From assembly GCA_049519415.1 (NCBI GenBank), contig JBEKQU010000005.1, forward strand, positions 37,504 through 101,503: a stretch of DNA of 64,000 nt, written 5' to 3'. This DNA comes from Spirochaetia bacterium. Lineage in GTDB: Bacteria; Spirochaetota; Spirochaetia; SZUA-6; Fen-1364. Below the pieces are notes generated by a model, which was not told the origin of the DNA, did not search any database, and saw nothing but the letters and a program-made list of their open reading frames with translations. Below, piece after piece: positions 5,033 to 60,758 of the stretch (the first letter of the stretch is position 1; the number at the start of each line of letters is the position of its first letter). The position numbers were made by a program, and so were the translations under genes.

Positions 5033-5201
5033 GGAGACCTCCTCACTGGAACTGATAGAAATAAGTCCTCTTGATAGGACATCAGATTATACTCCCACTG
5101 TCTTAGAAACGCAACAAATTTTTTTCGGGGTACGCAGGCGTCGGGTTGCCCCTCGACATTCCACGGTTTATACTTCCCCCCACAGCGCAAGGAGGAAAGC
5201 C

Positions 5202-6707
5202 GTGATCGACCTTTCGAAGCTCGAAGCCTGGTTCGTCACCGGAAGCCAGCACCTGTATGGCAAGGAAACGCTGGATAAAGTAGAAGAGCATGCGCGAGAG
5301 ATGATCAAGGGATTGTCTGATTCAGCCGCCATGCCGGTCGCCGTGGTTTTCAAGCCGGTAGTGACAACTCCGGACGCGATCCTCCAGGTGTGCCGGGAGG
5401 CGAATGCCGCGAAGAATTGCATTGGCATAGTCGCATGGATGCACACTTTCTCCCCCGCTAAGATGTGGATCGCGGGACTTGCGGCACTGAAAAAGCCGCT
5501 CGCGCACTTACATACCCAATACAACCGGGACATCCCCTGGTCCGGGATCGACATGGACTTCATGAACCTCAACCAGTCCGCGCACGGTGACCGCGAGTTC
5601 GGCTTTATCGGCGCCCGGATGCGCAGGGAGCGCGCGGTCATAGTCGGGCATTGGAAGGAAAAGGACGTGCAGGAGGAGCTTGCCGTCTGGATGCGCGCTG
5701 CCTGCGCCTGGCACGACTGGCAGGGGCTGCGCGTTGCCCGGTTCGGGGACAACATGCGCGAGGTCGCGGTCACCGAAGGGGACAAGGTGGAGGCACAGAT
5801 CCGGTTCGGCTACTCGGTGAATGGGTTCGGCGTGGGCGACCTTGCGGCCCGGGTCAGGGAGGTGAGCGACTCCGAGGTCGATAAACTGGTGATTGAATAC
5901 GATCAACGTTATGCCGTGGCAAAGGACCTGCGCGCCGGCGGAGCAAGCCGTCAGGCGCTGAAGGAAGCGGCCCGCATCGAGCTAGGCCTGCGCCATTTCC
6001 TGGAAGCAGGCGGCTTCAATGCATTCACCACGACCTTCGAGGACCTGCACGGCCTCGCGCAGCTACCGGGGCTCGCCGTGCAGAGGCTCATGGCCGACGG
6101 GTACGGGTTCGGGGCTGAAGGAGACTGGAAAACAGCGGCGCTTGTCCGCGCCATGAAGGTCATGGCGTCAGGCCTTCCGGGCGGCACCTCTTTCATGGAG
6201 GACTACACGTACCACCTGGATGCCGCGGGAATGAAGGTGCTCGGCGCCCACATGCTGGAGGTGTGCCCCACCATCGCTGAGGGAAAGCCCTTGCTGGAGA
6301 CGCACCCCCTGGGGATCGGCGGAAAAGACGATCCTGCCCGGCTGGTGTTCACCGCGGCCAAGGGCCCTGCCCTGAACGCGTCGATCATCGACATGGGCAC
6401 AAGGTTCCGGCTGGTGGTGAACGAGGTCGACGTCGTGGAGCCGGATGCGCCGCTGCCGAAGCTTCCCGTGGCCCGTGCGCTCTGGATTCCTCGACCCAAC
6501 CTGAAGGTTGCCGCTGCCGCCTGGATCCTTGCCGGCGCAGCGCATCATTCGGGATTCAGCCAGGCGGTCACGGCGCGTCACATGGAGGACTTCGCGGAGA
6601 TGGCCGATATTGAGTGCCTGCTTATTGACGCCAAAACCGACGTCTCGCAGTTCAAGAAGGAGCTGCGGTGGAACTCCGCCTACTGGCACCTTGCAGGCGG
6701 GGTGTAG
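5202..6707 (+). CDS. araA: L-arabinose isomerase
   Basis: Strong full-length similarity to AraA. Matching stretches include [60 protein letters not shown] and [38 protein letters not shown] start preceded by AGGAGG. Confidence 0.92.
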
Positions 6708-8146: not shown

Positions 8147-8629
8147 TTACGGTTCTATGGCGCGGAGGAACGCGATGAATCGCGTCAGGTCTTGCTTGAC
8201 AACGGGATGGGCCGTGGTGAGCTTCTTGACGAGGAGGTCGAGCCTGTCCCAGTCGTACCCTGTTTCGAAGTAGTAACGCCGAAAGTGACGGAACTTCAGG
8301 AGCTCCCATAGGTTTCCATGATTCCCCTCGGAAACCGCTGGTATCCGCACCCCCTCGATGTGTATGGTCATTTTTTCAAGCAGCTCTGCGTGCCATCTTT
8401 GCCCAGAAAGGCTGTTTTCGAAGAACTGCGAGATGCGAAGAAACACGGTCTCCAGGCAGGTGTAGTAATTTTCCAGCAGGCCGGCGATGATGAGGGCTGC
8501 GTTCTCGGTTCTTCCCAGAACCTGAACATCATGTTTGAGCGCGGTGGCGAGGGACGCCTGGAGCTTATCCAAAGTTCGCTCGTTTTTCTCGATACCGGCT
8601 ATCAGCTCAGCGATCTTCGCTTCGTTCAT
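8147..8629 (-). CDS. HEPN-domain / nucleotidyltransferase substrate-binding family protein, putative toxin of an MNT-HEPN TA pair
   Basis: 160-aa helical protein immediately downstream of the minimal nucleotidyltransferase, overlapping it by 23 nt. It has an R/H-rich motif region (KFRHFRRYY). The call rests mainly on gene pairing. Confidence 0.5.
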   Translation of the reverse strand: MNEAKIAELIAGIEKNERTLDKLQASLATALKHDVQVLGRTENAALIIAGLLENYYTCLETVFLRISQFFENSLSGQRWHAELLEKMTIHIEGVRIPAVSEGNHGNLWELLKFRHFRRYYFETGYDWDRLDLLVKKLTTAHPVVKQDLTRFIAFLRAIEP

Positions 8630-8999
8630 GAACGAGCCTCCCTCGGCGCCTGATCCCGTCTGCCGTGTCAGGATCGACCCTTTCCAGCTCGATGATATCG
8701 ATGGGGAACGAGGTCATGCCCATGGCCTCACCGATTATAGCAAACCAATCCTCGACACGCGCGAGACCCTCGATGGCGATATCGATGTCCGAGATCTCCG
8801 AGAAGTGATCCGTGTCCACGAGCGATCCCCATTGCCAGATGCGGCGAGGATTGTATGTCGCCGCGATGTGAGTGATGATCATGTGCGCGTCCCTCTGGGC
8901 GGCTATGAGGCGGGTCGCCACTTTCACGTTTCTTTTCTCCGTCTTTTTCCTGAGGAAATCCCTGACTTTCACAAGATCGATCGTTTGTTCAGCACCCAC
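8607..8999 (-). CDS. minimal nucleotidyltransferase (MNT/MntA-like) antitoxin
   Basis: GS-x(n)-D-x-D nucleotidyltransferase signature (WGSLVDTDHFSEISDIDIAIEG). 130 aa, overlapping the HEPN partner. Confidence 0.65.
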   Translation of the reverse strand: MGAEQTIDLVKVRDFLRKKTEKRNVKVATRLIAAQRDAHMIITHIAATYNPRRIWQWGSLVDTDHFSEISDIDIAIEGLARVEDWFAIIGEAMGMTSFPIDIIELERVDPDTADGIRRRGRLVHERSEDR

Positions 9000-9062
9000 G
9001 TCTCAAGTGTATGAGATTGTGTACTCAAGGACAAGACTTGCCCCGTCCAACCGGTCTGTACT

Positions 9063-11048
9063 ATGATCCCCACGCAGGCAAACCCCGGTATGACGGTCAT
9101 CCAACCCAGCTCCCGCAGCATCAGCGTTCATTCGGATTCCGGAGTTGTTTTCCACGTTCCCTACCTGTTTTTCTGGAACGGCCATGAGCGGCAGGCGGAG
9201 AGCATCGTGCTGTCGGCGCCTGCCCGAAGTGCACGTGCAGCCCGGGGCGCCTATGAGGTGCGGGGCACCTATGAGGTGCGCGCCTTTTTCCTGTTCGGCG
9301 AGGTCAGGGACAGGATTTCTGCCGATGCTTGGGGGATCACGTTGGAGCGAACCTGGTCGGTGAAAACCCCCGGCGCCGTGCACCTGTCCATCGACATGGA
9401 GTTCGACGCTCCAAAGGACGTGCGGCTTCTTTTCCCCGGCGTGCATGCGGCCCGGGGATTGCCGGCAACCCCCCTCTCTTTTCTCGGAGAAAAAACCAGC
9501 TACCCTTTAAGCCTCATCCTCTCCCTGGGGAAAAGAGGCGCGCTGCTGTTCTCACGGTCCGCCCTCTGCGAGGGAGAGGCGGCGGGGATCGGCATCAGCC
9601 GGACGGAAGGCGATGACGAGCCTTCCCGATTGCGCGTGCAGATGCGGTTTCCCGGCATCGAGGAGCCCGCGGGGCGCACAGGACCCCGGCCGCAGGACAT
9701 ACAGGCGCCAGAGGATGCGGCGATCGAATCGCCGGGGAGCCTGGAGCGGACGCACAAGGTGTTCCTTGCTTTTTCCTCAAGCGATGAGATTCTCGTGAAG
9801 GGAGCCGCAGCCGTGCTGGCAAGGCTCATGCCGCGGCCTGGTCGCAAGGCTCCCCCCAAAAGGTCGATCGATCAGGGATTCCTTGCGGAAGCCTTGCATG
9901 CCTCTCTTTCCACTCACCTGTATGAGCGCGGGGGCGTGGTCGGGCTGCGGGAGGCGCCCGGCAGTCCGTGGCTTTCCTCCACGGCCGGGCTGGGGTGCGC
10001 CATCGCGGCGCGCAGGCTCTTTCCCTCTGACGGCCGCCTGCACGAGCTGGCGCTTCGACTGGCTGATTTCACCCTCAAGGGCCAGATCCCCTCGGGATTC
10101 TTCCACGAGAGCTACCACGTCGACTCGGGGCAGTGGCGGGGCGTCCATGGCCAGGCCGCGCGCACGCATCTCTCCGTTCCGCAATCATCGCGCATAGCGG
10201 AGCTTCTCCTCATGTTTTCAGATGACCTTGCCCGGGACGGCCATCCGCACGAGAAGTACTTCCTGGCCGGGCTTCGGTTCGTCGAGTTTTTCCTTGATGA
10301 AAAGGGCAGGCTCAGCATGCCGGGAACCCTCCACCTCCCGGCGGACCGGGTCCCGGTTCCCGAATCCGGCTCGGCGCTCGGAGGGTTGGAGCTTTTTTTC
10401 CCCGCGGCGGCGATCCTCGAGCGAACGGGACGCGACAGGTACAGGAAGGCGCTCGACCTGCTGGTGAAGCGTTTTTCCCAACTTCCGTGGGACGCATTCC
10501 AGCCGCCGTGCTCCCGTGAAGGCCGCGGTTCCGATGCTGCCGGCGCGCTTCTAGCGGCGCGGCTTTTCGTGCGCATGCGCGCAAGAGGATACAAGCCCGT
10601 TGAGCCGCCGGTCAGCACCGCCGCGGCAGCCGCGGCGCGCGCGGCCGAGAGCGTGCGGTTGTTTGCGTCGCTCCTGGTTCCCTGGATCCGCGTGCACACG
10701 GAGACGGGGGATCAGCGGCGGGCCCCGGCGCTGCCCGGCAGCCTTGTGGACTCCTTCGCGCGCCAGCGGCTCATTTTTGCTGGATACCAGACCAGCCTTC
10801 TTCTCCTGGAGCTGGCCGCGCTCACGCCAGATGCTTCTCTTAAAACTCTGTTGAAATCCCTGGTCGGTCTCTGCCTGGATGCGGCGCGCGCCGCGCCGCT
10901 GGGAACGGCCTTTCTCCAGCACACAGTGTGGGACGGCGAGGGCAGGATCGCGGAAGCTCGGGGCAGGCGCGGGCCCGTGGACGCGCGGCGCCTTGCCGGC
11001 GAACTCCTTGCGGGCATTGCCATCGCCGAAAAGTTCCCGAAGGTTTGA
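9063..11048 (+). CDS. large uncharacterized cytoplasmic protein (661 aa)
   Basis: Long ORF with protein-like composition. No Walker, nuclease or signal-peptide motifs were recognised. It contains an in-frame 15-bp tandem duplication (YEVRGTYEVR) at 9250-9279. Confidence 0.5.
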   Translation: MIPTQANPGMTVIQPSSRSISVHSDSGVVFHVPYLFFWNGHERQAESIVLSAPARSARAARGAYEVRGTYEVRAFFLFGEVRDRISADAWGITLERTWSVKTPGAVHLSIDMEFDAPKDVRLLFPGVHAARGLPATPLSFLGEKTSYPLSLILSLGKRGALLFSRSALCEGEAAGIGISRTEGDDEPSRLRVQMRFPGIEEPAGRTGPRPQDIQAPEDAAIESPGSLERTHKVFLAFSSSDEILVKGAAAVLARLMPRPGRKAPPKRSIDQGFLAEALHASLSTHLYERGGVVGLREAPGSPWLSSTAGLGCAIAARRLFPSDGRLHELALRLADFTLKGQIPSGFFHESYHVDSGQWRGVHGQAARTHLSVPQSSRIAELLLMFSDDLARDGHPHEKYFLAGLRFVEFFLDEKGRLSMPGTLHLPADRVPVPESGSALGGLELFFPAAAILERTGRDRYRKALDLLVKRFSQLPWDAFQPPCSREGRGSDAAGALLAARLFVRMRARGYKPVEPPVSTAAAAAARAAESVRLFASLLVPWIRVHTETGDQRRAPALPGSLVDSFARQRLIFAGYQTSLLLLELAALTPDASLKTLLKSLVGLCLDAARAAPLGTAFLQHTVWDGEGRIAEARGRRGPVDARRLAGELLAGIAIAEKFPKV

Positions 11049-13562: not shown

Positions 13563-15356
13563 TTAGAACATCATCGATTCCATGAAGCGCTCCTGGAACT
13601 CAGGTTTCCCTCCCAACTCCACGAAACGGGCATGCCGCGCGGCGCTCTCCGCTTTCCGCCAGCACTCCCGGGAAAGCAGAACCATAACGGCGCCCCGCAG
13701 GGCGGCGTTTCCCACGACCTGCACCTTGCCGAGGTCCATTTCCGGAATCAGTCCGATGCGCATGGCGGCGCGGGCATCCAGCCCTGCGCCGAAGTTGCCT
13801 GCCAGGCGGAGCGAATCGAGGCGATCCTTCGATGTGCCGGTTGCTTCCAGGAGGGTCTCGATGCCGGTGCGCACCGCGCCCTTGGCAAGCTGCAGCTTGC
13901 GGATGTCGTTCTGGGAGATGAAGACGCTCCCGTCGTCGGACAGCGCAAAGACGGACTCCCCACCCCGGGAGAGCATGCGGGCACGGAGCGCGGGAAGGGG
14001 CACCTCCGCGGAATCGACTATCCGGCCCGTGGCGTCAACCACGCCGCGCTCCAGAAGCTGCGCGATTCCCGCGATGAGCCCCGTGCCGCAGATGCCCTTG
14101 GGCGCCGTGTCCCCCACGACTTGCAGCCACAGCTCGCCGTTGTCTGAAATCGTGGCATCGTAAATGGCCCCCTCCAGCGCGCGCATGCCGCAGGAGATCT
14201 GCGCGCCCTCAAAGGCCGGTCCTGCCGCGGTGGAGGTCGCGACCAGCTCCCCTTGCCGGGCGAGAACAATTTCGCCGTTGGTGCCGATGTCGATTGAAAG
14301 GGTGGTGCGGCGTTCCTTCTCCAGATCGAGCGCCACGATCATGCCGATGGTGTCCGCCCCGACGTAGGCCGACACGAGCGGGAGAGTCTCCACATAGCCG
14401 TTCTCCTGGAAGGTCCACCCGAAGTCGCGGGGCGACGAGCGCAGGAAGCCAGCCGTCACGGGGATGTAGGGAACGTGCGTGAGCTGATAGGGATCGATCC
14501 CGTTGAGGATGTGGATCATGATGGGATTGCCCACCACCACGGTCTTCACGATGTGGGCTGCGGAGATGCCGGTCTCTGAAAGGATCTCGCAGGCGCCTTC
14601 CAGGATGGTGCGCAGAGCGGCCGCGCGCACGGGATCCCGGTCCTCGTGGAAGCTCTGCGCGCGGCTGATCACGTCCGCGCCAAAGGCCACCTGGCCGTTG
14701 AGGAATGCCTTGCGCGCCAGCCGTTCACCGGATTCCAGGTCGAAAAGCGCGATGTCCACCGTGGTGGTTCCCAGGTCCACGGCGAAGCCATAGCAGCGGC
14801 CTCTCTCACTGGCGTCCAGCCAAAGGAAATCGTTCTCTTCGCACAGGGCTTCAGCTCTCCATTCGTTGCCGCGGAGGATTCGCGAGAGCCGCTCAAGGGA
14901 GAGGGAATCGGGCCGCGCCGCGCTGATGCCGTGCCTTGCCAGTCCCTCGGAAAGCCTCTCCCAATCGGCGCGCTGGTCCTCCAGGGAGGGTGGTGAGAGT
15001 TGAATCTCCACCCGGCGCATGGTGCCGCTGCCGATCGAGGTGCTGATATCCTCGTCACGCAGGCCCTGCGTCCAGGACTTGCGGGACAATCGACTTTCGG
15101 GAATCGTTACGGTGCAGTCCTCGGTGAGAGGAAGCTGGCAGGCCAGACGAACGCCGTCGGACGCCTCAGTCTCCTTCAAGCCTCCCTTTCCTGCCGCGGG
15201 AGCCGGATCGACGTGGACCCTGCACTGCCGGCATCTTCCCTTGCCGCCGCAGGGGTAGTCCAGCAGGATTCCCGCCGTGTGCAGCGCGTCGCGAAGGAGA
15301 GTGCCTTCAGCCGCTGTGATGACACTGTCGAAGGGGTGCACTCTGATCCTGGGCAT
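13563..15356 (-). CDS. ASKHA-domain protein with N-terminal 2Fe-2S ferredoxin domain (RACo-like corrinoid activation family)
   Basis: Ferredoxin Cys cluster (CGGKGRCRQCRV) and ASKHA phosphate-1 motif (YGFAVDLGTTTV). The ORF extends to 15428, but the conserved N-terminus begins at the ATG at 15356. Confidence 0.75.
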   Translation of the reverse strand: MPRIRVHPFDSVITAAEGTLLRDALHTAGILLDYPCGGKGRCRQCRVHVDPAPAAGKGGLKETEASDGVRLACQLPLTEDCTVTIPESRLSRKSWTQGLRDEDISTSIGSGTMRRVEIQLSPPSLEDQRADWERLSEGLARHGISAARPDSLSLERLSRILRGNEWRAEALCEENDFLWLDASERGRCYGFAVDLGTTTVDIALFDLESGERLARKAFLNGQVAFGADVISRAQSFHEDRDPVRAAALRTILEGACEILSETGISAAHIVKTVVVGNPIMIHILNGIDPYQLTHVPYIPVTAGFLRSSPRDFGWTFQENGYVETLPLVSAYVGADTIGMIVALDLEKERRTTLSIDIGTNGEIVLARQGELVATSTAAGPAFEGAQISCGMRALEGAIYDATISDNGELWLQVVGDTAPKGICGTGLIAGIAQLLERGVVDATGRIVDSAEVPLPALRARMLSRGGESVFALSDDGSVFISQNDIRKLQLAKGAVRTGIETLLEATGTSKDRLDSLRLAGNFGAGLDARAAMRIGLIPEMDLGKVQVVGNAALRGAVMVLLSRECWRKAESAARHARFVELGGKPEFQERFMESMMF

Positions 15357-15452
15357 CGGCACGGATACTAAACGGATTGGAGCGTTCCGGGCAAGGGGCT
15401 GGCGCGGATGGGAAACTTGACGCTCCACACGGTACAGGCTACCTTGTGGCCC

Positions 15453-16668: not shown

Positions 16669-17565
16669 TTATCCCTTGACCGCGCCGATGGTCAGCCCGG
16701 TGACAAAATACCTCTGCACGAAGGGATAGAGAAGAAGGATGGGACCCGTTACGATCAGTGCGGTCGCCATCTTGAAGGATTCCTGCGGAAGCGACGCCGT
16801 GGAGTTGGCGCTCATGGCCACGCTGGCCATCTCTCGCATCGCCTGGGCGCTCATGAGGAGGTTGTAGAGGTAGAACTGCAACGGATACTTGCTCGTGGTG
16901 CGGATGTAGAGGCTGCCCTGGAACCAGTCGTTCCAGTAGCCCAGGGCGGTGAAGAGGCCGATGGTGGCCAATGCTGCCGTGGACAGCGGAAGGATGAGCT
17001 TGCGGTAGATGAGGAAGTCGCTCGCCCCGTCGATCTTGGCTGATTCCACTATGGAATCCGGAACCGCCGTGCGGATGAAGGTCCGCATGAGGATGATCAG
17101 GAAGGGGCTCAGGAGCGGTGGAAGGATCAGGGCAAGGAGGCTATCGGTGAGACCGAGAAAGCGGGTCACCAGGATGTACTGCGGGATGATCCCAACGGAG
17201 AAGAGCTGCGTGAAGTAGATGATGAACGAGAGACGGTTGCGGTACTTGAAGTCCCTTCTCTGCAAGACGTATCCCGCCATGGAAACGAAGAACAGCGAGA
17301 AGAAGGTTCCTACGGCCGTCACGGTAACGGTGACCATGTAGGCGGATAGGATCCTCCCCGGGATCTGAAACGTGAACGTGTAGGCCTCCAGGGAGAACTT
17401 CAGCGGCAGAAACGAGAAACCGTGTTTGACGATCTCGGACTCCTGCGTGAACGACGAGGAGATCAGCATGAGAAAGGGGAGGACGCAGGCGACCGCAGCC
17501 AGGGTCACGACGAAATAGGCGATGATCCTGAGAGCCGTATAGTCGGGACCCTTCTTCACCGCCAT
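16669..17565 (-). CDS. carbohydrate ABC transporter permease (MalG-like)
   Basis: Six TM segments and the EAA-loop region (IDGASDFLIYRKLILPL). Confidence 0.85.
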   Translation of the reverse strand: MAVKKGPDYTALRIIAYFVVTLAAVACVLPFLMLISSSFTQESEIVKHGFSFLPLKFSLEAYTFTFQIPGRILSAYMVTVTVTAVGTFFSLFFVSMAGYVLQRRDFKYRNRLSFIIYFTQLFSVGIIPQYILVTRFLGLTDSLLALILPPLLSPFLIILMRTFIRTAVPDSIVESAKIDGASDFLIYRKLILPLSTAALATIGLFTALGYWNDWFQGSLYIRTTSKYPLQFYLYNLLMSAQAMREMASVAMSANSTASLPQESFKMATALIVTGPILLLYPFVQRYFVTGLTIGAVKG

Positions 17566-17574
17566 GGCATACCT

Positions 17575-18549
17575 CTAGAACAGCGCATACTCGGGATCGA
17601 TCTGCTTGATGATGAAGTTCGTCACGAGGATCACCGCGAGACCGAACACGGACTGGAAGAGGCCGGCCGCCGTCCCGAGCTGGATCTCCGCCGTCACCGT
17701 CAGGGCCCGATAGACATAGGTATCAATGATGTCGGTGGCGTTGTAGAGCTGTCCGTTCCGACCCACCATCTGGTAGAACAACTCGAACTGGCCTCGGAGG
17801 ATCCCACCGATGCTAAAGAGCAGCAGGATGATGATGGTGGGCTTGAGCATGGGGAGCGTGACGGCGGTGATCTGTCGGAACGCGTTGGCTCCGTCGATGG
17901 CTGCCACGTCGTACAGCTCGTTGTTGATGGACATGATGGCAGCCAGGTAGATGACCGATCCGTACCCCAGCCACTTCCAGACGTGCGCGATGGTGAGGAT
18001 GTACTTCCAGTACCCCGGCGTTGTGTAGAAGCTGACCGCCTTGAACCCCAGCGCCTCCAGGCCGTGGTTGATGATGCCGTAGTCGAAGTTCAGAAGCCCG
18101 TAAGCGAACAGACCTACCAGGACAAAGGAGATGAAGTAGGGGAGGAAGATGAAGGTCTGCGCCAGCCGCTTGTAGAACGGGCTGGTGATCTGGCTGATCA
18201 GGATTGCCACCATGATCTGGAAGAAGTTCCCGACGATGATGAACGCCACGTTGTACAGCAGCGTGTTGATGGTCAGCTTGGTGATGATGTTGCCGAGGAA
18301 GAGGAACCGGAAGTACCGGAATCCGACGAAGGGGCTGCGGAAGAGCCCCAACGCGTACTTGTAGTCGACGAACGCGTAGTACGCGCCGACAAAGGGAATG
18401 TAGAAGAACAGGAGGAAGTACAGGAACGTCGGCAGGAGCATCACGAACAGAACCTTGTTCTTCTTGAGCTCGAAGAAAAAACCCCGGTTTGGAGGCAAGC
18501 GGAGCGGTTCCACAGGCACACTTCCTGACGAGTTCACATTTGCAGCCAT
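17575..18549 (-). CDS. sugar ABC transporter permease (LplB/MalF-like)
   Basis: LplB-type N-terminus (FELKKNKVLFVMLLPTF) and an EAA region (IDGANAFRQITAVTLPMLKP). Confidence 0.85.
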   Translation of the reverse strand: MAANVNSSGSVPVEPLRLPPNRGFFFELKKNKVLFVMLLPTFLYFLLFFYIPFVGAYYAFVDYKYALGLFRSPFVGFRYFRFLFLGNIITKLTINTLLYNVAFIIVGNFFQIMVAILISQITSPFYKRLAQTFIFLPYFISFVLVGLFAYGLLNFDYGIINHGLEALGFKAVSFYTTPGYWKYILTIAHVWKWLGYGSVIYLAAIMSINNELYDVAAIDGANAFRQITAVTLPMLKPTIIILLLFSIGGILRGQFELFYQMVGRNGQLYNATDIIDTYVYRALTVTAEIQLGTAAGLFQSVFGLAVILVTNFIIKQIDPEYALF

Positions 18550-20219: not shown

Positions 20220-20322
20220 TCTGCGGAACCAAGCCCATCCAAGGAGAGGCTCCGTGTATTCACATCACGTCTAGCGAAGGGGCCGGATGGCCCAGGAGCG
20301 CTGGGCAAGAAAGGAGTCAGGA

Positions 20323-21870
20323 ATGAAGAGACAGGTCCTCGTGTTCTGCGTCGTCCTTCTCGCCTGCGGCGGCATGCTGTTCGCCTCCGGCAAGACGGAA
20401 GGCGCCGCCTCGTCGGGAGGCCCGGCACCACAGCTCATCGTGCAGCTCATGGACAACGAGCAGCCGGACGTTCCCGCGGTCACGGCGGAGATCAACAAGA
20501 TCCTGTTGAAGAACCTCAACGTCACGGTGAAGTTCCAGCACTTTACCTGGACGGACTGGCAGCAGAAGTACAAGCTGCTGGTGACGTCCGGTGAGCCGGC
20601 CGACCTTCTCTACGCCGCCAACTGGAACAACTACGCCCAGTACGCGCGAGACGGAGCCTACAAGCAGCTCGACGATATGCTCCCCAAGGTTGCGCCGGAG
20701 CTTATCAAGGCCATCCCCAAGACGAGCTGGGACGGCGTGAAGATCCAGGGCAAGATCTGGGCGGTTCCTCCGCTCCGCTACGGCTACTCGGGAACGGGCC
20801 ACCTCCTGTATCGCGCGGACCTGCAGAAGAAGTGGGGCGTGGCGCCGGTGACCGATTGGAACTCGTTCTACGCGTACCTGGATGCGGTCAAGAAGAACGC
20901 GCCGGACATGGTCCCGTGCGAGGACTTTGGCAACACCTCTGAGTGGGTCAGCTCGCTACTGCTCAACACCATTGCCAAAGACAATCCCCAAAACGCGTGG
21001 TTCACCGCCTTCCTCACCCAGAGCCAGCTCTTATGGTTCGACTTCCGCAACCAGAAGCCGGACAACATCAAGGCTATCTACGAGTTCCCGGAGTACAAGC
21101 CTTTCCTCCAGACCATGCATGACCTTGCCGGACGGGGTTACTGGTCTCCCGATGTCCTGGCGGAGAAGAGCATCGGCTCCGAGATTTTCGAGGCCGGAAA
21201 GTCTGCTGCCACCGCCGGCGGCGCCGGAACGCAGAACATCGACAAGACCCAGGAGCTGATTCAGCGCGTTGCAAAGAACAATCCCACCTGGGAGGTCGGT
21301 GAGCTGAGCTGGGACAAGGTCCGCGGGTGGGCCATCCCTGCGGCAGCACAGCAGGACCTGACCACGGTTCCCATCCAGTCCAAGTATCCCGAGCTGGCCC
21401 TCAAGGTCACCTCGGCCATGCTCCTGGACAAGGACCTGCAGTTCCTCATCGACTACGGCATCAAGGGAGTCCATTACGACATCGGCACCAAGGGTGAGTA
21501 CGTCCAGCTCCCCGGCGCCAAGAACTACATGCTGTTCGGCATGGCCGCATGGGCCTGGAAGAACCAGAGCATGTTCCTGGCGGACGGGAGCGTGTGGGGA
21601 CCCCAGCACGACGCTTACCTGAAGTACTACGACACCATTGCGGTGCCCAACACCGGCTTCGCGCTGGACACGAGCCCCATCAACGCGGAGCTCACGGCGT
21701 GCATCCAGGTGGAGCAGCAGTACGGCTGGCCGCTCTGGTTCGGTCTTGTCCCCAACATCGACGACGCGGAGAAGACCTTCGAGCAGCAGCTTCAGGCCGC
21801 AGGCATCGAGAAGGTCCGCGCGGAGATCAAGAAGCAGCTCGCCCAGTACCAGAAGGAGATCGGGCAGTAG
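20323..21870 (+). CDS. extracellular solute-binding lipoprotein (LplA-like) of oligosaccharide ABC transporter
   Basis: Lipoprotein signal (LLACGG). About 515 aa, the size typical of LplA-type binding proteins. It is divergent from the permease operon. Confidence 0.8.
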   Translation: MKRQVLVFCVVLLACGGMLFASGKTEGAASSGGPAPQLIVQLMDNEQPDVPAVTAEINKILLKNLNVTVKFQHFTWTDWQQKYKLLVTSGEPADLLYAANWNNYAQYARDGAYKQLDDMLPKVAPELIKAIPKTSWDGVKIQGKIWAVPPLRYGYSGTGHLLYRADLQKKWGVAPVTDWNSFYAYLDAVKKNAPDMVPCEDFGNTSEWVSSLLLNTIAKDNPQNAWFTAFLTQSQLLWFDFRNQKPDNIKAIYEFPEYKPFLQTMHDLAGRGYWSPDVLAEKSIGSEIFEAGKSAATAGGAGTQNIDKTQELIQRVAKNNPTWEVGELSWDKVRGWAIPAAAQQDLTTVPIQSKYPELALKVTSAMLLDKDLQFLIDYGIKGVHYDIGTKGEYVQLPGAKNYMLFGMAAWAWKNQSMFLADGSVWGPQHDAYLKYYDTIAVPNTGFALDTSPINAELTACIQVEQQYGWPLWFGLVPNIDDAEKTFEQQLQAAGIEKVRAEIKKQLAQYQKEIGQ

Positions 21871-21919: not shown

Positions 21920-23023
21920 TCATTTCCGGATCAATCCGATCAGTGGATTGCATCCACGCTCGCCACCCAGAGCGATGATGTCACGGTCCTGGATCTGGGC
22001 CCGTCGAAGTGGTTCGATGATATCTCGGACGAGATCCGGGACGTACGCCTTGAGCAAGGAGCAAGGACCGTTGGGGGCAACTGCGACGTTCCCAAGGCTC
22101 GCAGGCAGGAGGCAGGATTGGCCTGGGCCCAGGTTCTCCGAGCCGGTTCCGCCCTCCACCGAGGAATTGCCTTCGATCTGGGTGAGAACATAGAACCTTT
22201 CGCCCGCGCAGGCTATGTCGTGGGGTGAAACCAGGTCGAGGCGCTCCAGCGCGAAAAAGCGGCACGCGAAGATATAGGAGATGCGATTCATCCCTAAAGC
22301 GACGATCACGGGCTGAACTCTACATTCACTGCCCGGCGCCAATCGTACCGCACGGATCGTCTTCTCAGCCCACTTTTTCCGTCCCTCCGTCCCGGGGAGG
22401 AACTCATGGCTCCGCAGCATCATTATGACATCCGAGTTCTGCATGATCTCGTAAAAGAGAACTCCGCCATGGCTATAGTGCATGGTGCCGGCGTGGAGGA
22501 GAAACGCATCCCCGGAACGCGCCTGCTGCTCCTCCATGACGTCACGGATCGTGCCGTCAACCAAAGCCTTCAATACCTCGTCGCGGCCGATCCCTTCACG
22601 CGTTCCGCAATGGATGGTGGCCCCGGGCCGGGTCCTGAGCATGTACCAGGCTTCGGTCTTCCCTGGATCCTTCAGTCCCTGTTCCTTGGCAAGGGAATTG
22701 TCCTGATGCACCTGTTCTCCAAGGGGATTGGTAGCGTCCAGGAGTTTGATCAGAAGAGGGAACCGGGAGCCGGATTCGGCGGTTACGGCATGTCCGAGAA
22801 GCTCCTCACCGTACGTTTCTATCAGGTCGTGAAGGCTGCTGCCGGCAAGCGCTCCATTCTTCACCACGCTGGATTCCCCGGGCCTGTCGCAGACCTCCCA
22901 TGTTTCCGAGAGCCTGTGCTCCTCGGGAAGTCCCTGCTTGTCGAACTCCTCCGCGATCCATCTGCCGCCGAAGTCGTAGTTCCTGAGAATCTCCTTGAAC
23001 CGAAGCGGATAAAGACCGGGCAT
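21920..23023 (-). CDS. manA: mannose-6-phosphate isomerase, class I
   Basis: FPLLIKLLDA motif and the QVHQD region match the type I PMI cupin signature. Confidence 0.75.
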   Translation of the reverse strand: MPGLYPLRFKEILRNYDFGGRWIAEEFDKQGLPEEHRLSETWEVCDRPGESSVVKNGALAGSSLHDLIETYGEELLGHAVTAESGSRFPLLIKLLDATNPLGEQVHQDNSLAKEQGLKDPGKTEAWYMLRTRPGATIHCGTREGIGRDEVLKALVDGTIRDVMEEQQARSGDAFLLHAGTMHYSHGGVLFYEIMQNSDVIMMLRSHEFLPGTEGRKKWAEKTIRAVRLAPGSECRVQPVIVALGMNRISYIFACRFFALERLDLVSPHDIACAGERFYVLTQIEGNSSVEGGTGSENLGPGQSCLLPASLGNVAVAPNGPCSLLKAYVPDLVRDIIEPLRRAQIQDRDIIALGGERGCNPLIGLIRK

Positions 23024-23032
23024 CGTTATCGG

Positions 23033-24688
23033 CTATCTCCATGACTCGACGAGCCTTTTCAGCCGACGGTAGCCTTCCTTGGGCCGGAGCTGCTCGTCCA
23101 CGAGACCCCCGTGCGGAATAAAAGCGGGGTCGGCGAAGTCCCACCACGTCAGGGCTTCAACCTCGGGCTTGGCGTAGCAGATCGTGTAGAACCCTTCGAT
23201 CCAGTCCGCCTGCTCCTGCTCGGACCAGGGGCGTCCGTGCCAGCGCATGCGGTTGGGGACGTAGACCTGAGTCGGCGTGACAATGGGATCTTCCGCTGAG
23301 CTTATTCCTGCCTCGGTGATGTGCACCTTCTTGCCGAGCCGGCAGAAGGTCTCTATGTGTCGATCGATCTCGAAGAGGTCCCGGGAAGGATCGTACATCT
23401 GGAGCCCTATGGCCTCGAACTGGACGCCGGCGGCAAGAAGGTCCCGACAGTATTCAAGAGTGCTCCTGGCACGATCGTCGGAGATATTGCTCCACCCCCA
23501 CCCGGTGGCAGCGTACTCGCTCCAGGTAAAGCATAAGTTGACGACACGCTGGGCCTTGGAGTTGCGGGCCTTGACTGCTTTGGACGCGAGATCGGTGATT
23601 TCCACGAGCCGGGCGTAGGGCCACCGGTGGATGTTGTTCCAGCTATGCGCCTCGTTGATGATGTCCCACCGGTCGATCCTGCCAGCGAACCTCCCCACGG
23701 CGTCGCTCACGTAGTCGAGGTGCGATGCGAGTATCTCCTCGTAGCTCTTGCCCCGCAGCCAGTCCGGCGTGCCCGCGTCGAACAGCCAGATCAGGGGATG
23801 GCCCTTCACCTGCATCCCCGCGCGCGCCGCCCATGCCACGATGGTCTCGGCCGCGGAGTAGTCGCGAACGCCCTGCACCGGCTCTACCGTGATTTTCCTG
23901 TAGAACGGCGCCGTTACATAATTGAGCACGCCCTGGAAGAGCTCCGCGTAGCGCTCGCCAAGCTTGGCGTAGTTGAAGCCGTTGCAGCCGAAGAGGAAGT
24001 CCTTCCGGTGCCCTCGTGAAGCGATGAGAGACCGCGCGTGCTCGAGCGCGAGCATTTCGCCCGCCTGCATGGACCGGGCCAGGGAAGACACGGCCCGCCG
24101 CGCTTGCTTGATGGGATCGCTCGCCCGTTCCGCGTCTTCGAGAAGCATCGCGGACTCGGCAACCGCCTCGCTGCATGCAAGAGAGGGCTTGAAGGTCTTG
24201 GCGCCCCATTGGACGGCTGCCGTCTTCACCGCGGAGAGCCGGGAACGGGCGAACTCGAGGTTCAGGTTCAGCCGCTTTCCCCCGACTTCCCGACGGTCGT
24301 ATCCCCTGCCTTCGTTGTCCGCGTAGACGTGGACATGCCCGAAGCCGTCGACGTTCAGGGGCATGCCGATGGAGAAGGGCGCATCCGCACAGGGCAGCCG
24401 GACGCAGCCAAAGCCGATGGTCATGATCATGGGCCGCTGCTCGAATGCCGGCATGTGCTCCATGTCGAGGACCATTATTTCGTTCTGCGGCGCCCAGTCC
24501 AGAGGAGACCCGTCGCTGGAAAAAACTACGGCTTCAAAATAATCGTCTGTCCGCTGCATGACACGCCACTCCTTTCCTTCAAGAGATAGCACATACCATA
24601 GCTCTCCTTCAGCCCGGCGCCAAGGCCGCGCATTTGGGGAAGATTCTTGATGAGGGCACGCGTCCTCTGGATTACTGATCGCGCTCAC
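23033..24688 (-). CDS. glycoside hydrolase family 10 (xylanase-like) protein with ~200-aa N-terminal extension, no signal peptide
   Basis: GH10 catalytic motifs WDIINEA (acid/base Glu) and HITEAG (nucleophile Glu), plus GHPLIW. The start is uncertain; an internal Met is at 24559. Confidence 0.65.
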   Translation of the reverse strand: MSAISNPEDACPHQESSPNARPWRRAEGELWYVLSLEGKEWRVMQRTDDYFEAVVFSSDGSPLDWAPQNEIMVLDMEHMPAFEQRPMIMTIGFGCVRLPCADAPFSIGMPLNVDGFGHVHVYADNEGRGYDRREVGGKRLNLNLEFARSRLSAVKTAAVQWGAKTFKPSLACSEAVAESAMLLEDAERASDPIKQARRAVSSLARSMQAGEMLALEHARSLIASRGHRKDFLFGCNGFNYAKLGERYAELFQGVLNYVTAPFYRKITVEPVQGVRDYSAAETIVAWAARAGMQVKGHPLIWLFDAGTPDWLRGKSYEEILASHLDYVSDAVGRFAGRIDRWDIINEAHSWNNIHRWPYARLVEITDLASKAVKARNSKAQRVVNLCFTWSEYAATGWGWSNISDDRARSTLEYCRDLLAAGVQFEAIGLQMYDPSRDLFEIDRHIETFCRLGKKVHITEAGISSAEDPIVTPTQVYVPNRMRWHGRPWSEQEQADWIEGFYTICYAKPEVEALTWWDFADPAFIPHGGLVDEQLRPKEGYRRLKRLVESWR

Positions 24689-24724: not shown

Positions 24725-27112
24725 ATGAGTGAAAGAACCGGACAGCTGCAGCAAACCATCAAGGCCATGCTGAATGCGGGCGTGCGTCGGACCACTTTCT
24801 ATCCTCTGGTAAGCGAATCGCTGGATCAAACCCAGGGAAAACCTAGGCCACTACGGCGTGCCATGGCTTTTGCCTACTTGCTGGATCACGTTGAGCAGGT
24901 TGTTCTGCCCCATGAGCTCTTGGCCGGCTCCATCACCGGGATGTGGCCGTTGGCGGAAGATCATGCCACCATCGAACAGCAGTTGATGGAAGGACGCCAG
25001 GCGATTGAAGAGTACCTGCGGCAGCGCCAGCACAACCCTCCCGCCCAAGCGGTGGAGCGCTGGGCGCTGATGGCGCGCGACCACTACGATGCCCGAATTC
25101 GCTTCTCCGATCTGCAGCAGGTCGCTCAAACACTTTCGCACGAGTTCAACGGCAGCCACCAGCTCCCCTATGCCGAGCTGTACCGGGTTTTGGAAAATCA
25201 TTTTGTATTCGATTACGGGGAGCGGGTGCGTAAGAACTTTGCGGAGCTGCCATGGTTCACCGCCAATCATCTCTCTCTGAGCTTCAAGAAAGCACTGGAG
25301 CGCGGCCTGGGAGACATCAGGCAGGAAATCCTTTCCCGTCGATCGCAGGCCGGAGAACCCGCTCAACAAGAGTTCTATGACTCGACCCTCATCGCCATGG
25401 ATGCCGCCATGCGCTTCATTCACCGCTACGCTGGCACCCTGCAGCAAGCGGCCAGCCAGGTTCACACGGTGCGGGCACAAGAGTTGCTTGAGATGGCCGG
25501 CCTCTGCGATCGGATCGCGGAAAACGCGCCGCGGACCTTCCGCGAGGCAATCCAACTGGTCTGGATGATCCACCTGATCAGCAACATCGGCGGCGGGGCG
25601 GCCATGTCCTTTGCCCGATTCGACCAGTACTTGGGGCCTTTCTATCAACGTGACCTGGCCGCGGGAATAGTCACGCCCGAACAAGCCAAAGAGCTGATCG
25701 CCCACCTGTGGCTGAAGACCAACGAAGCAAAGATGCGCACGGTGCAGAGCCTGGCGCTCTCCGGGATCGACCGCAGCGGCCGGGATGGCACCAATGACCT
25801 GACGTACCTCTGTCTTGATGTCATTGCCGAGGTCCGCGAGCCCTATCCCAATACCTGCGTGAGGATGCACAAGGACAGCCCTGCCAAGCTGTGGGAGAAG
25901 GTGATCGACACGCTGCTGATCGGCATAGGGCAGCCGCAGATCTTCAATGATGACGCCATGCTGCGCGGCATGGCGCGGGCGGGTCTCCCGGTGGAGGACG
26001 CGCGCGACTATTACCCGATGGGCTGTGTTGAGGTGATGCTGGAGGGGGTGCAGCCCACCTACCAGGGCATTGGCGGTGTGGTCTTTGCGGGGCTGCTTGA
26101 GGCGGTCTTCAACAACGGCGGCGCGAATACCGCCGGCGAAACCGGCTGCCCCACGGGCGAGCTTTCCTCCTTCCCGACTTTTGATGCTTTCCTCAACGCC
26201 TACCTGACCCAGGTCCGCTGGCGGCTCACCAATTCGATCCATGAGGCCGAAGAGCGCAGCCTGCATGGGGCCAGGGAGCTGTACGATCCTTTCGCGTCGA
26301 TCTTCGTGGAAGACTGCCTGAAAAAAGGCAAGGATGTCTGTCAGGGCGGAGCGCGCTACCCGGCGTGCTTCACAATGAACGGGTTAGGATTCGGAACGGC
26401 GATCGACTCTCTGGCTGCCATCAAGACGGTCGTCTATGGACGCAAGCAGTACTCCCTGCAGCAGGTCAAGGCGATGCTGGATAAGGACTTTGCCGGCGAT
26501 GAGTCGGCCCGGGTGCTGCTTGTCAGCCACCCCGCGGCCTACGGGAATGATCTGGAGGAAGCGGATTCCATCGCGCGCCAGGTGTACAGCGCCTTTGTCG
26601 ATACCGTCCTGGATTACCGTTCTCCCATCGGCGCATTCTTTTTCCCGCAGATGTTCAGCTATAACTCGCACGTCAATCGCGGTGAAATCACCGCCGCCAC
26701 TCCCAACGGGCGGCGGCGCGCTGAGGCGCTCAGCGACGGCCCTGGGCCGACGCAAGGCCGGGACGTGAGCGGGCCGACGTGCCTGATCAACTCGGTGACG
26801 GGCATGGATGGGAGCAAATTGATCGGCGGCTGCGGCTTCAACATGAAGATCAGCCCGGATTTCGTCCGCGGTCCAGAGGGCAGGAAAATATTGAAATCAT
26901 TGCTCCTTACATACTTGCGGAAAAATGGGATGCAGATCCAGGTCAACCTGATTGACCAGGAGACCTTGCGCAAAGCCCAGCAGTTCCCCGAGCAGTACCG
27001 CAACATCATCGTGCGGGTGGCAGGGTATTGCGAATATTTTGGCAACTTGGATCGCAAGCTGCAGGACGAGATCATCCGCCGCACGGCCCAGCTTGCCCCC
27101 GCCGCGACGTGA
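24725..27112 (+). CDS. glycyl radical enzyme (PFL2/glycerol-dehydratase clade)
   Basis: C-terminal glycyl radical motif RVAGYCEYF and active-site GCVE. About 795 aa. Confidence 0.85.
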   Translation: MSERTGQLQQTIKAMLNAGVRRTTFYPLVSESLDQTQGKPRPLRRAMAFAYLLDHVEQVVLPHELLAGSITGMWPLAEDHATIEQQLMEGRQAIEEYLRQRQHNPPAQAVERWALMARDHYDARIRFSDLQQVAQTLSHEFNGSHQLPYAELYRVLENHFVFDYGERVRKNFAELPWFTANHLSLSFKKALERGLGDIRQEILSRRSQAGEPAQQEFYDSTLIAMDAAMRFIHRYAGTLQQAASQVHTVRAQELLEMAGLCDRIAENAPRTFREAIQLVWMIHLISNIGGGAAMSFARFDQYLGPFYQRDLAAGIVTPEQAKELIAHLWLKTNEAKMRTVQSLALSGIDRSGRDGTNDLTYLCLDVIAEVREPYPNTCVRMHKDSPAKLWEKVIDTLLIGIGQPQIFNDDAMLRGMARAGLPVEDARDYYPMGCVEVMLEGVQPTYQGIGGVVFAGLLEAVFNNGGANTAGETGCPTGELSSFPTFDAFLNAYLTQVRWRLTNSIHEAEERSLHGARELYDPFASIFVEDCLKKGKDVCQGGARYPACFTMNGLGFGTAIDSLAAIKTVVYGRKQYSLQQVKAMLDKDFAGDESARVLLVSHPAAYGNDLEEADSIARQVYSAFVDTVLDYRSPIGAFFFPQMFSYNSHVNRGEITAATPNGRRRAEALSDGPGPTQGRDVSGPTCLINSVTGMDGSKLIGGCGFNMKISPDFVRGPEGRKILKSLLLTYLRKNGMQIQVNLIDQETLRKAQQFPEQYRNIIVRVAGYCEYFGNLDRKLQDEIIRRTAQLAPAAT

Positions 27113-27146
27113 GCCGCACGATGCTCCCAGAGGAGACGCGAATCTC

Positions 27147-28160
27147 ATGAAAGCCGTTGCCGCTACCGCCCGGGGAAAAGTCGAAGTCGTTGAAATCCCA
27201 ATGCCTGAAATACAGGACTACGAGTGCCTGGTCAAAGTAAGAGCCTGCGGGTTTTGCAATGGCACCGACATGAAGATCATTGACGATGAGGTGAGCACTA
27301 CTCCGGTCGAATTCCCAGTCATCCTGGGCCATGAAGGGGTCGGAGAGGTGGTCCAGGTGGGGAAAAAGGTCAAGAACATCCATGTGGGGGAGGTCTACCT
27401 CAATCCTCATGGCCGGATCATGCCCGGCACGCCATTCAAAGGCATGTGGACCAACATGGTGGAGTATGGCTTCCTGCCCGATTACCAGGTCATGGACGAA
27501 CTGGGCATTGGCGGCCCGCGCTGGGGAGCCAATCTCTCCATCCCGCCGGAGATTGACCCGCTGGATGGCGGGGTCATCCTGACGCTCAAAGAGTGCTTCA
27601 GCGGCGTCCGCAATTTTGGCGTCCAGCAAGGCCAGTCCGTCCTGGTCTACGGGGACGGCCCGGTGGGCCTGGCGCTGGTAAATTTCCTGCGCATGGCAGG
27701 CGCGGCGTGGGTCGGTTGCGTGGGGCACCAGCCCCAGCGCATGGAGTGGATCGCCAGCCATTCCCAGCCGGACCTGCTGCTCAATTCGCATGTGGAGTCC
27801 GTCCCGGAACGTATAGGAGAGCGGCGCCTGGACTTGGTGATTGACGCGGTGGGCTCAACCGCCATCATCCGGCAGGCTTCTCGCCTGCTCAAGCCAGGCG
27901 GCAAGGTGGGCGTTTTGGGCGTGATCAAAAACAAGGACGCATCCCTGTCGCTGCTGGACCTCGCCAACCACACTTCGCTGCACATGCTCAATTGGCCCTA
28001 TCGGGAACACGCGTCTCATGATGAAATTGTTGGCTTGATTCTGCAGGGCAAGATCAAACCCAAAGATTATTACAGTCACGTCATATCGATAGATGAGGCT
28101 CCCCGAGCGATGGAGATGATCAGGACGCGGCAGGCTTTCAAGGTAGTGCTGAAAATGTGA
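27147..28160 (+). CDS. zinc-dependent alcohol dehydrogenase (MDR family)
   Basis: GHEGVGEV zinc site, CGFCNGTD structural zinc region and a GxGxxG motif (VYGDGPVGLA). Confidence 0.85.
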   Translation: MKAVAATARGKVEVVEIPMPEIQDYECLVKVRACGFCNGTDMKIIDDEVSTTPVEFPVILGHEGVGEVVQVGKKVKNIHVGEVYLNPHGRIMPGTPFKGMWTNMVEYGFLPDYQVMDELGIGGPRWGANLSIPPEIDPLDGGVILTLKECFSGVRNFGVQQGQSVLVYGDGPVGLALVNFLRMAGAAWVGCVGHQPQRMEWIASHSQPDLLLNSHVESVPERIGERRLDLVIDAVGSTAIIRQASRLLKPGGKVGVLGVIKNKDASLSLLDLANHTSLHMLNWPYREHASHDEIVGLILQGKIKPKDYYSHVISIDEAPRAMEMIRTRQAFKVVLKM

Positions 28161-28246: not shown

Positions 28247-28597
28247 ATGATGCAGGCGAAGACCGAGCTGGCAAGAGATCCCGTTCTCCTCTCGTTGTTG
28301 GAGCGGATCAGGAGCACCCTCGATCCCGAGCGTGTCTACCTGTTCGGTTCGAGGGCACGGGGTCAGGCAACTCCGGACAGCGACTACGATTTTCTCGTCG
28401 TCGTCCCGCATTCGGACAAGCCCCGCTATCGACGGGATCAGGAGGCGTACCTGGCGCTGTGCGGAAGTGGCGTCGCAAAGGACATCATTGTGCTCACCCG
28501 AGCAGAGTTCGAGTCGTCTCGTCGGGCTGTCTCATCGTTGACCTCCGCGGTCCTCAGCGAGGGGATCCTTCTGCATGAATCAGGAAACGCGAGCTGA
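28247..28597 (+). CDS. nucleotidyltransferase-domain protein (MNT-type antitoxin)
   Basis: LFGSRARGQATPDSDYDFLVVV is the GS...DxD nucleotidyltransferase motif. Confidence 0.7.
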   Translation: MMQAKTELARDPVLLSLLERIRSTLDPERVYLFGSRARGQATPDSDYDFLVVVPHSDKPRYRRDQEAYLALCGSGVAKDIIVLTRAEFESSRRAVSSLTSAVLSEGILLHESGNAS

Positions 28598-28745
28598 AGC
28601 TGCAGCGTGGCTCGCCAAGGCGCGGACGGATTTACGCGCAGCCCTGGCTGATCTGAACGCATCTCCGCCGATCACCAGCGATGCGCTGTTTCACTGCCAG
28701 CAGGCGGTTCGCCGGAACCCGATCTGGCCACGGCAGAGGCGGGCA
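28575..28745 (+). pseudogene. HEPN-domain toxin gene, disrupted (frameshift into Arg-rich nonsense)
   Basis: The N-terminus (AAAWLAKARTDLRAALADL...ALFHCQQAV) matches HEPN. It loses the expected EKALKA continuation. Confidence 0.5.
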
Positions 28746-29022
28746 TGGGAACCGAGGTCCGCCTCCCTGTTCCGCTCGCGCCGATCGCCTCGACGGTCCC
28801 GGCGGCGTCGGCCCCGAGTATCCGCATCTTGGGCCGGAAGAGCCCGCCTGCCATGAAGCGGATGAAGAAGGGATTCGCCCTCATCCTGCGATCATCGCTT
28901 GAGTTGATCGAGGAGGCGCGGACCTTGATCAGGATCTCGTCCTCCGCCGGGGCGGGTTTCTCGACGTCCCTCAAAATGAGGACTGACGGCGATCCGTAGC
29001 TGTCATACACTATTGCTCTCAC
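28672..29022 (-). pseudogene. quinone oxidoreductase/Zn-ADH family N-terminal fragment
   Basis: RAIVYDSYGSPSVLILRDVEKPAPAEDEILIKVRASSIN...ILGADAAGTVEAIG is a classic QOR N-terminus. It breaks down after about 110 aa and overlaps the HEPN fragment. Confidence 0.5.
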
Positions 29023-29129
29023 GCTCGCTGCCTCGCTTGGAAAAACCCATGCCTTGGAATATAGGGCAAGCCGCGCGCTCGGACGCACACACTTAAGTGT
29101 GGTTTCGAGTGTGTTCTTTCGATCGGTTG

Positions 29130-58883: not shown

Positions 58884-58930
58884 AAAAGAGAGTTACCCTC
58901 CATGTACCGTTGTAAACGGGGGAAGAAGAC

Positions 58931-59458: not shown

Positions 59459-59556
59459 AGCATTGCAGAGGCAGTAATGGATTCATCCGCTCAGCCACCT
59501 TGGCACTTCCACCGGAGCGTCGCCCACTAACGTAGACGTGCAGCCGCCGGTATCTC

Positions 59557-60650: not shown

Positions 60651-60758
60651 TTCCTGGGCTCTAGGAAGAGCGGATTGTCGATCCCATAGAATACATCCAT
60701 GTAGCCGATGACCCGGCGCACCTCGTCGATCTGTCGTCCAGAGCTATCGAGGGACTGG

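Follow-up and report, generated by a model that had tools for sequence, protein, structure and literature searches.

We analysed a stretch of 64,000 nucleotides from a Spirochaetia bacterium (assembly GCA_049519415.1, contig JBEKQU010000005.1, positions 37,504 to 101,503; the whole stretch is called the window below), in which a gene for a glycyl radical enzyme (GRE) is followed by a gene for a zinc-dependent alcohol dehydrogenase (ADH). At a probability of roughly 0.65, the GRE would be an activase-dependent radical enzyme that cleaves a C–O bond in a substrate derived from a sugar and possibly phosphorylated, in concert with the ADH. The two, together with an ATP-binding cassette (ABC) importer and an L-fucose-isomerase-like (FucI-like) isomerase, would form part of a catabolic module for a plant-derived sugar in an anaerobic member of the Spirochaetia. 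This reading is carried by the integrity of domains and motifs, the placement of the GRE in a clade apart from characterized enzymes, the recurrence of partner genes beside homologous GREs, the presence of activase genes in relatives and purifying selection. Coordinates are collected in Table 1; contigs and loci used for comparison are cited by L numbers.

Domains and catalytic motifs of the GRE

Both Pfam domains of the GRE are complete (PFL-like PF02901, E = 1.6e-124; Gly_radical PF01228, E = 2.6e-24), and the protein has the PFL-like barrel, the C-terminal glycine-radical domain and the RVxG[FWY] loop of the GRE superfamily. The GCVE and RVAGY motifs that an earlier note on this DNA had read from the sequence were both located by translation. 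C434 aligns with the catalytic C433 of glycerol dehydratase (GDH), and E436 completes the Cys-x-Glu (CxE) signature of the Cys loop. When family members are aligned to GDH (His164, Cys433, Glu435), H182, C434 and E436 are kept in 72/72 of them and G767 (GDH Gly763) in 71/72. A protein identical to the window GRE is encoded on seven contigs from several metagenomes.

Placement apart from characterized GREs

Searched against NCBIfam, the window GRE reached no equivalog or subfamily cut-off: it scored 482.8 bits against a cut-off of 678.2 for TIGR01774 (PFL2/glycerol dehydratase subfamily), 94.7 against 994.2 for TIGR01255 (the pyruvate formate-lyase, PFL, equivalog) and 389 against 1109 for NF007437, the equivalog that tests for E. 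coli YbiW and PflD. HypD, CutC, HpfG, HpsG and the decarboxylases were rejected on scores that all lay far under their cut-offs. The best sequence matches in the PDB are alike at ~300–360 bits, with GDH first (1r8w/1r9d, 4e-106), PflD second (8yjo), and propanediol dehydratase (PD; 5i2a, 4e-101), CutC and HypD among the others; 1h16 matched the C-terminal region of the window GRE alone (4e-22).

We built a neighbour-joining (NJ) distance tree over residues 180–789 from 72 family GREs, five outgroup GREs from related loci, and GDH, PD and E. coli PflD, YbiW and PflB. Over these residues, family members are 37–100% identical to the window GRE, GDH, PD, PflD and YbiW 32–33% and PflB 23%, and all five of the latter fall outside the family. 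The earlier note had placed the GRE in the glycerol/propanediol dehydratase clade; the tree sets it apart from both GDH and PD, and orthology to either is rejected by the family cut-offs and by the pocket residues described below. That the enzyme is no classical PFL, as the note had it, agrees with the TIGR01255 score, with its separation from PflB in the tree and with the lack of a Cys-Cys dyad, a Gly preceding C434 where PflB has Cys.

The window GRE shares the GRE fold, the RVAGY and Cys-x-Glu motifs and the His164 equivalent with GDH (Clostridium butyricum DhaB1) and PD (Roseburia inulinivorans), and differs from them in the pocket. Among GDH His164, Ser282 and Asp447, the last two of which bind the diol in the GDH structure, His164 alone is kept, as H182. 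Ser282, a Ser in GDH, PD, PflD and YbiW, is replaced by A293 (Ala in 67/72 family members), and the position of Asp447, an Asp in GDH, PD and PflD, is a gap in the window GRE and in most members, or Gly. GDH His281 is exchanged for Ala or Ser, Tyr339 for V340 (Val in 72/72) and Tyr640 for Phe644. Ala293, Arg338, Val340 and Tyr646 are family-specific, and Arg338 and Tyr646, which GDH and PD lack, are invariant. The Gly loop of the family reads RV[AG]G[YF][CS]E[YF]F, with Glu770 in 71/71 members where GDH, PD, PflD and YbiW have Ala (GYCE in the window, GYSA in GDH and PD). In the active-site comparison, the His-Cys-x-Glu core of the diol dehydratases is retained and their common Ser and Asp are missing. 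A 2026 review describes the roles of His164, Cys433 and Glu435 in GDH and that of the CxE motif, with Glu as base, in 1,2-eliminases and GRE isomerases (PMC13450708).

By these alignments, the window GRE is a CxE-type enzyme, with predicted eliminase or isomerase chemistry and a substrate pocket different from that of GDH and PD. It is assigned by sequence to a large, widespread and uncharacterized clade that crosses several phyla, with members in Spirochaetes, Planctomycetota/Brocadiia, Kiritimatiellota, Lentisphaerota, Sumerlaeota, many gut and termite Firmicutes, and Treponema.

The ADH and its association with the GRE

As the earlier note had observed, a zinc-dependent ADH with ADH_N and ADH_zinc_N domains follows the GRE. 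The two genes share a strand and are 34 bp apart, there is no terminator-like site between them or just after them, and the ADH is probably co-transcribed with the GRE. Both domains of the medium-chain dehydrogenase/reductase (MDR) family and its catalytic-zinc positions C34, H62 and E63 are present; C34, C37, H62, E63 and E149 are invariant in 31 ADH orthologues, and the alignments do not single out a fourth zinc ligand. Many, though not all, MDR members carry a four-Cys lobe for a structural zinc. No such lobe was found in the window ADH, which has five Cys in total, none of them clustered, and no Cys in residues 85–110.

The GroES-like and Rossmann domains and the Cys34/His62/Glu63 zinc positions are also those of MDR polyol, threonine and secondary-alcohol dehydrogenases (PDB 4cpd, 1e3j, 1jqb). 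Unlike these enzymes, the window ADH lacks the structural-zinc Cys cluster and carries Gly193-His194 at the position of an Asp in NAD-dependent relatives, and it reaches at most 99 bits to any solved structure, the closest including a Thermus ADH, an NADP(H)-dependent ketose reductase, an iditol dehydrogenase and clostridial secondary ADHs. The exchange of the Asp for Gly193-His194 suggests that the ADH uses NADP(H). Judged by these features, the ADH would be no less suited to the ketone or secondary hydroxyl of a sugar-like molecule than to a simple aldehyde.

We scanned one genome per species for related loci, which returned 78, and determined partner genes by orthologue searches and all-against-all clustering of flanking open reading frames (ORFs) with Pfam checks. 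In 28 of 73 related loci, a set with many truncated members, an orthologue of the ADH (E < 1e-60) is encoded no more than 4 kb from the GRE. These 28 are spread over Brocadiia/Planctomycetota, Kiritimatiellota, Lentisphaerae, Sumerlaeota, Spirochaetes and several Firmicutes families. MDR dehydrogenases in a broader sense occur in 38 loci, and a more distant one follows the GRE in further Firmicutes loci. The pairing across phyla bears out the earlier view of the ADH as a true functional partner.

Three side observations concern the pair. Just past it, a minus-strand ORF with an ADH_N fragment only is apparently what remains of a second MDR dehydrogenase. In L187, a GH4 glycosidase gene (8616–10004, +) shares 4 bp with the GRE at its start codon; the glycosidase and the GRE-ADH pair may therefore be translationally coupled in that lineage. 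Some loci in Lachnospiraceae and Treponema (L039, L040, L051) hold two paralogous family GREs in one cluster.

Sugar-catabolic partners

The window combines a transporter, an isomerase, the GRE and the ADH, with neither kinase nor activase. Its FucI-like isomerase recurs beside homologous GREs; the best NCBIfam match, over the full length, is the sulfoquinovose isomerase SftI (152 bits against a cut-off of 700). L093 and an Oscillospiraceae locus (L077) have homologues of the solute-binding protein in the corresponding module (79% identical in L093), and homologues of both permeases occur in L093, L077, L056 and L058. The phosphomannose-isomerase-like (PMI-like) cupin protein is an accessory whose gene recurs in some related clusters, with homologues near the GRE in L022, L041, L078 and L105. 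An FGGY carbohydrate kinase is encoded in 20 related loci, and some loci add an aldose 1-epimerase, a PMI-like cupin, or DeoR or ROK regulators.

The glycoside hydrolase (GH) family 10 gene that the earlier note named as upstream neighbour is indeed there, divergent from the GRE. The 96%-identical strain (L105) shares it, whereas L092, L093, L100 and L187 lack it, and GH10 and PMI occupy the site upstream of the GRE where those relatives with a linked activase carry that gene solely in the window and that strain. Because the neighbouring glycoside hydrolases vary between lineages (GH10 in the window, GH30 in L093, GH30 and GH5 in L077, GH78 in L092, GH4 and GH28 in L187), we regard GH10 as lineage-specific and not as a conserved partner.

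In four Anaerostipes loci (L025, L027, L029, L064), the GRE and its activase are followed by a mannose-type phosphotransferase system (PTS; IIA, IIB, IIC/IID), a SorC-type regulator and an esterase, and the ABC transporter and FGGY kinase are missing. Such alternation of a PTS with an ABC transporter plus FGGY kinase is expected if a later enzyme uses a phosphorylated sugar.

These partners bear on the route from diol to aldehyde to alcohol that the earlier note had proposed. In it, the GRE would dehydrate glycerol or 1,2-propanediol independently of B12, and the resulting aldehyde would be reduced to the alcohol by the ADH, for example downstream of fucose or rhamnose breakdown. The retained CxE motif and His164 equivalent, the hydrophobic residues at the GDH Tyr339 and Tyr640 positions, the rank of GDH as top PDB match and the ADH directly downstream all speak for this, and the FucI-like isomerase and FGGY kinase of related clusters recall the fucose pathway that yields propanediol. 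Yet GDH and PD are only about 33% identical to the GRE and group elsewhere in the tree, the TIGR01774 score is far too low, and the Ser282 and Asp447 positions have changed in most of the family. The clusters examined contain no fuculose-phosphate aldolase, FucO-type lactaldehyde reductase, CoA-acylating aldehyde dehydrogenase or microcompartment shell genes; the ADH stands amid sugar isomerase, kinase and transporter genes and not in a diol-utilization operon. With partners such as these (FucI-like isomerase, FGGY kinase, sugar transporters of ABC or PTS type), the simple diol route is not supported as an account of the locus, and we consider diol dehydration improbable.

A more specific form of the sugar-cleaving reading has the GRE open the ring of an anhydro-sugar or a related sugar phosphate, as do the isomerases of 'anhydroglycolysis', E. 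coli YbiW and PflD, which cleave a C–O bond in 1,5-anhydroglucitol-6-phosphate and 1,5-anhydromannitol-6-phosphate. Those are likewise CxE GREs amid genes for sugar uptake and catabolism, where pflD and ybiW adjoin PTS, aldolase and dedicated activase genes; the sugar-transport context is matched here by the PTS of the Anaerostipes subclade and by ABC transporters with FGGY kinase elsewhere. PflD is the second-best PDB match and has His649 in common with the window GRE, in which the invariant Arg338 could bind an anionic group, and the CxE chemistry of such isomerases has been described (PMC13450708). Against it stand the identity of 32–33% to both enzymes, the NF007437 score, the exchange of their conserved Ser for Ala and other pocket differences. 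The partner sets also diverge, with ADH, FucI-like isomerase and FGGY kinase in the window family versus PTS and an FSA-type aldolase in E. coli; no such aldolase was found in the conserved clusters, and ring opening would leave the FucI-like isomerase without a role. This specific version is unlikely, though less so than diol dehydration.

Absence of a local activase

The CxxxCxxC motif is absent from every ORF of 100 residues or more in the 64-kb window, and two six-frame matches to it both lie in implausible frames. A hidden Markov model (HMM) trained on over 40 GRE activases encoded beside homologous GREs found no match among the stop-to-stop ORFs of the window even at E ≤ 10, and a metagenome contig that extends ~8.6 kb beyond the window end (L085) holds no radical S-adenosylmethionine (SAM) gene. 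The earlier statement that no activase lies within 10 kb was conservative: the activase-free span reaches at least 24.7 kb upstream and ~45 kb downstream of the GRE, and an activase immediately outside the window, which the note had allowed for, was looked for downstream and not found in the ~8.6 kb of L085. On the upstream side, ORFs tried as anchors for an extension lie on contigs of no more than 3–7 kb. As the data cover only part of one contig from an uncultured genome, 'orphan' means no more than 'not nearby'.

Where 5 kb or more of flank is available on both sides, an activase lies within 3 kb of the GRE in 19 of 22 loci from Firmicutes and Spirochaetes, and within 10 kb in one of nine from the Planctomycetes-Verrucomicrobia-Chlamydiae (PVC) group and Sumerlaeota. 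Four lineages (L092, L094–L098, L100, L101) with GREs 78–83% identical to that of the window have the order FucI-like (−), activating enzyme (AE, +), GRE (+), ADH (+), with the AE directly upstream of the GRE; L092 is a 205-kb long-read contig with frameshifts. The window, L105 (96%), L093 (72%) and L187 (80%) are activase-less and have other genes at the AE site, and no canonical activase was found in L105, L093 and L187 within the available flanks of ~4.8 to 10 kb. The two arrangements are about equally frequent among the closest relatives found. Since about half of these relatives carry the AE directly upstream, its absence here is probably a local change of gene order: it would reflect the gene order of the lineage and not the biology of the enzyme. 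The orphan state that the earlier note had put first is real and in itself ordinary and unimportant.

In L187, a 371-residue radical SAM protein with CxxxCxxC is encoded 4 kb upstream of the 80%-identical GRE (4863–5978, +). It was rejected as activase because the activase HMM gives it 49 bits, where full-length activases reach 360 or more, and it presumably resembles AmmeMemoRadiSam proteins more than GRE activases. Homologues close to the L092 activase (75–88% identical) all stand beside GREs of other lineages in other samples.

We infer that the activase is encoded elsewhere in the source genome. Activase and FGGY kinase are immediate neighbours in eight loci (L007, L030, L035, L044, L050, L063, L068, L078), and, both being absent from the window, may lie together at another site. 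The distinctive Gly loop of the family argues for a dedicated, co-evolved activase; a precedent for activation in trans is the activation of TdcE by the PFL-AE of E. coli (PMC13450708).

That 73 kb or more surrounding the gene contain no activase would also fit a GRE that has lost its activase and decayed into a non-working or non-radical relic. The selection data decide against this. The ratio of non-synonymous to synonymous substitution rates (dN/dS) of the GRE is 0.17 in comparison with L105 and 0.19 with L093, and that of the ADH is tighter still (0.08 and 0.11). The GRE is intact and under purifying selection within activase-less lineages, and a degenerate relic is rejected on these grounds. 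All catalytic residues are intact, the 96%-identical strain has kept the arrangement without activase, and unlinked activases are common, the other eight of the nine PVC/Sumerlaeota loci having none within 10 kb. Decay is accordingly the least credible alternative and highly improbable.

Proposed mechanism and weight of the evidence

By analogy with characterized CxE GREs, we infer the following chemistry and order of steps for sugar C–O cleavage: (i) a radical-SAM activase encoded elsewhere would install a radical on Gly767, (ii) the radical would move from Gly767 to Cys434, (iii) the thiyl radical of Cys434 would take a hydrogen from a hydroxyl-bearing carbon of the sugar-derived substrate, (iv) Glu436 would deprotonate the hydroxyl while His182 aids departure of the oxygen substituent on the adjacent carbon, and (v) return of the hydrogen would give a deoxy-carbonyl product. 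The ADH, interconverting carbonyl and hydroxyl, would either make the GRE substrate from a keto-sugar or reduce the GRE product. The substrate could carry a phosphate, as suggested by the ABC transporter with FGGY kinase or the PTS in related clusters and by the invariant Arg338 near V340 at the GDH Tyr339 position.

Several points weigh against a sugar-cleaving GRE-ADH module. The tree that separates the family is a simple distance tree with no support values, and the putative pocket assignments come from alignment to GDH and from the GDH structure. The attempt to derive the sugar from the neighbouring glycoside hydrolases failed, their families differing by lineage. No FGGY kinase is encoded in the window, so that the module is incomplete here, and the conserved clusters examined hold no aldolase or other obvious downstream enzyme. 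No activase was found for the source genome within the ~73 kb examined, and a metagenome scan with the activase alignment gave, among the matches listed, only activases of at most 53% identity.

GREs allow anaerobes to carry out chemically hard steps, as in the pathways from choline to trimethylamine and those of hydroxyproline, sulfonates and anhydro-sugars. To our knowledge, each newly assigned GRE clade has revealed a new pathway. The present clade sits in plant-polysaccharide utilization loci, and no pathway that we found in the literature explains its partner set: a full-text search for the gene combination returned no characterized pathway, a recent characterization outside the searched literature being possible. 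The 2026 review lists six C–O-cleaving eliminases and three GRE isomerases, none with the partner set of the window family (PMC13450708). We tentatively propose, at somewhat less than even odds, that the family cleaves a C–O bond by radical chemistry in a sugar or sugar phosphate handled by no characterized GRE and that, with the MDR dehydrogenase, the FucI-like isomerase and the FGGY kinase, it forms a new catabolic route in anaerobes of at least six phylum-level groups from peat, sediments and animal guts. The identity of the substrate could expose an unrecognized anaerobic plant-sugar route in peat and gut carbon turnover.

Other features of the window

Table 1 Features of the window discussed in the text
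Feature	Position	Strand	Basis or remark
Glycyl radical enzyme, 795 aa	24725–27112	+	Pfam PFL-like and Gly_radical; motifs by translation
His182 of the GRE	25268–25270	+	Alignment to GDH His164
Cys loop G433-C434-V435-E436 (GCVE)	26021–26032	+	Checked by translation
Gly loop R764-V-A-G767-Y (RVAGY)	27014–27028	+	Checked by translation
Zn-dependent MDR ADH, 337 aa	27147–28160	+	Pfam ADH_N and ADH_zinc_N
GH10 glycoside hydrolase	23033–24592 (or 24688)	−	Pfam Glyco_hydro_10; divergent from GRE
PMI-like cupin protein	21920–23023	−	Pfam PMI_typeI_cat and MPI_cupin_dom
ABC transporter solute-binding protein	20287–21870	+	Pfam SBP_bac_1 and DUF3502
FucI-like aldose-ketose isomerase, 483 aa	18657–20108	−	Pfam Fucose_iso_C
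ABC transporter permease	17575–18549	−	BPD_transp_1, via identical Joint Genome Institute (JGI) contig L001
ABC transporter permease	16669–17565	−	BPD_transp_1
MDR dehydrogenase remnant	28672–29088	−	ADH_N fragment only
Toxin-antitoxin-type gene	28247–28597	+	MNT-like nucleotidyltransferase/HepT-like
Toxin-antitoxin-type gene	8147–8629	−	MNT-like nucleotidyltransferase/HepT-like
L-arabinose isomerase (AraA)	~4899–6707	+	Via identical contig L106
RACo-type reductive activator	13563–15428	−	Fer2 and RACo domains
Inverted repeat pair, 169 nt	29232–29400/35396–35564		95% complementary
Second inverted repeat pair, 78 nt	30106–30183/35347–35424
Surface protein, 1557 aa	38834–43507	+	Six FlgD_ig repeats, CHU_C and OmpA domains
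Carotenoid-type gene set	56521–62616		Also in L085

One of the two toxin-antitoxin-type genes stands directly after the ADH gene, as it does in the 96%-identical strain. Upstream in the window, the AraA gene adjoins radA, whose product matches the RadA of a Spirochaetia metagenome-assembled genome in NCBI at 100% identity, and the gene for a RACo-type reductive activator of corrinoid proteins fits an anaerobe and points to an anaerobic corrinoid methyltransferase system. Downstream, the two inverted repeat pairs enclose a block of ~6 kb with two DUF4386 genes, an RpoD-like sigma factor gene and a DUF4395 gene, which could be an invertible or duplicated segment. A protein similar to the large surface protein is encoded downstream of the GRE in L092, which indicates that some synteny is kept. 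The carotenoid-type set comprises FAD-dependent desaturase-like, CrtO-like and tocopherol-cyclase-like proteins and is adjoined by a glycosyltransferase and an ABC-2 exporter.

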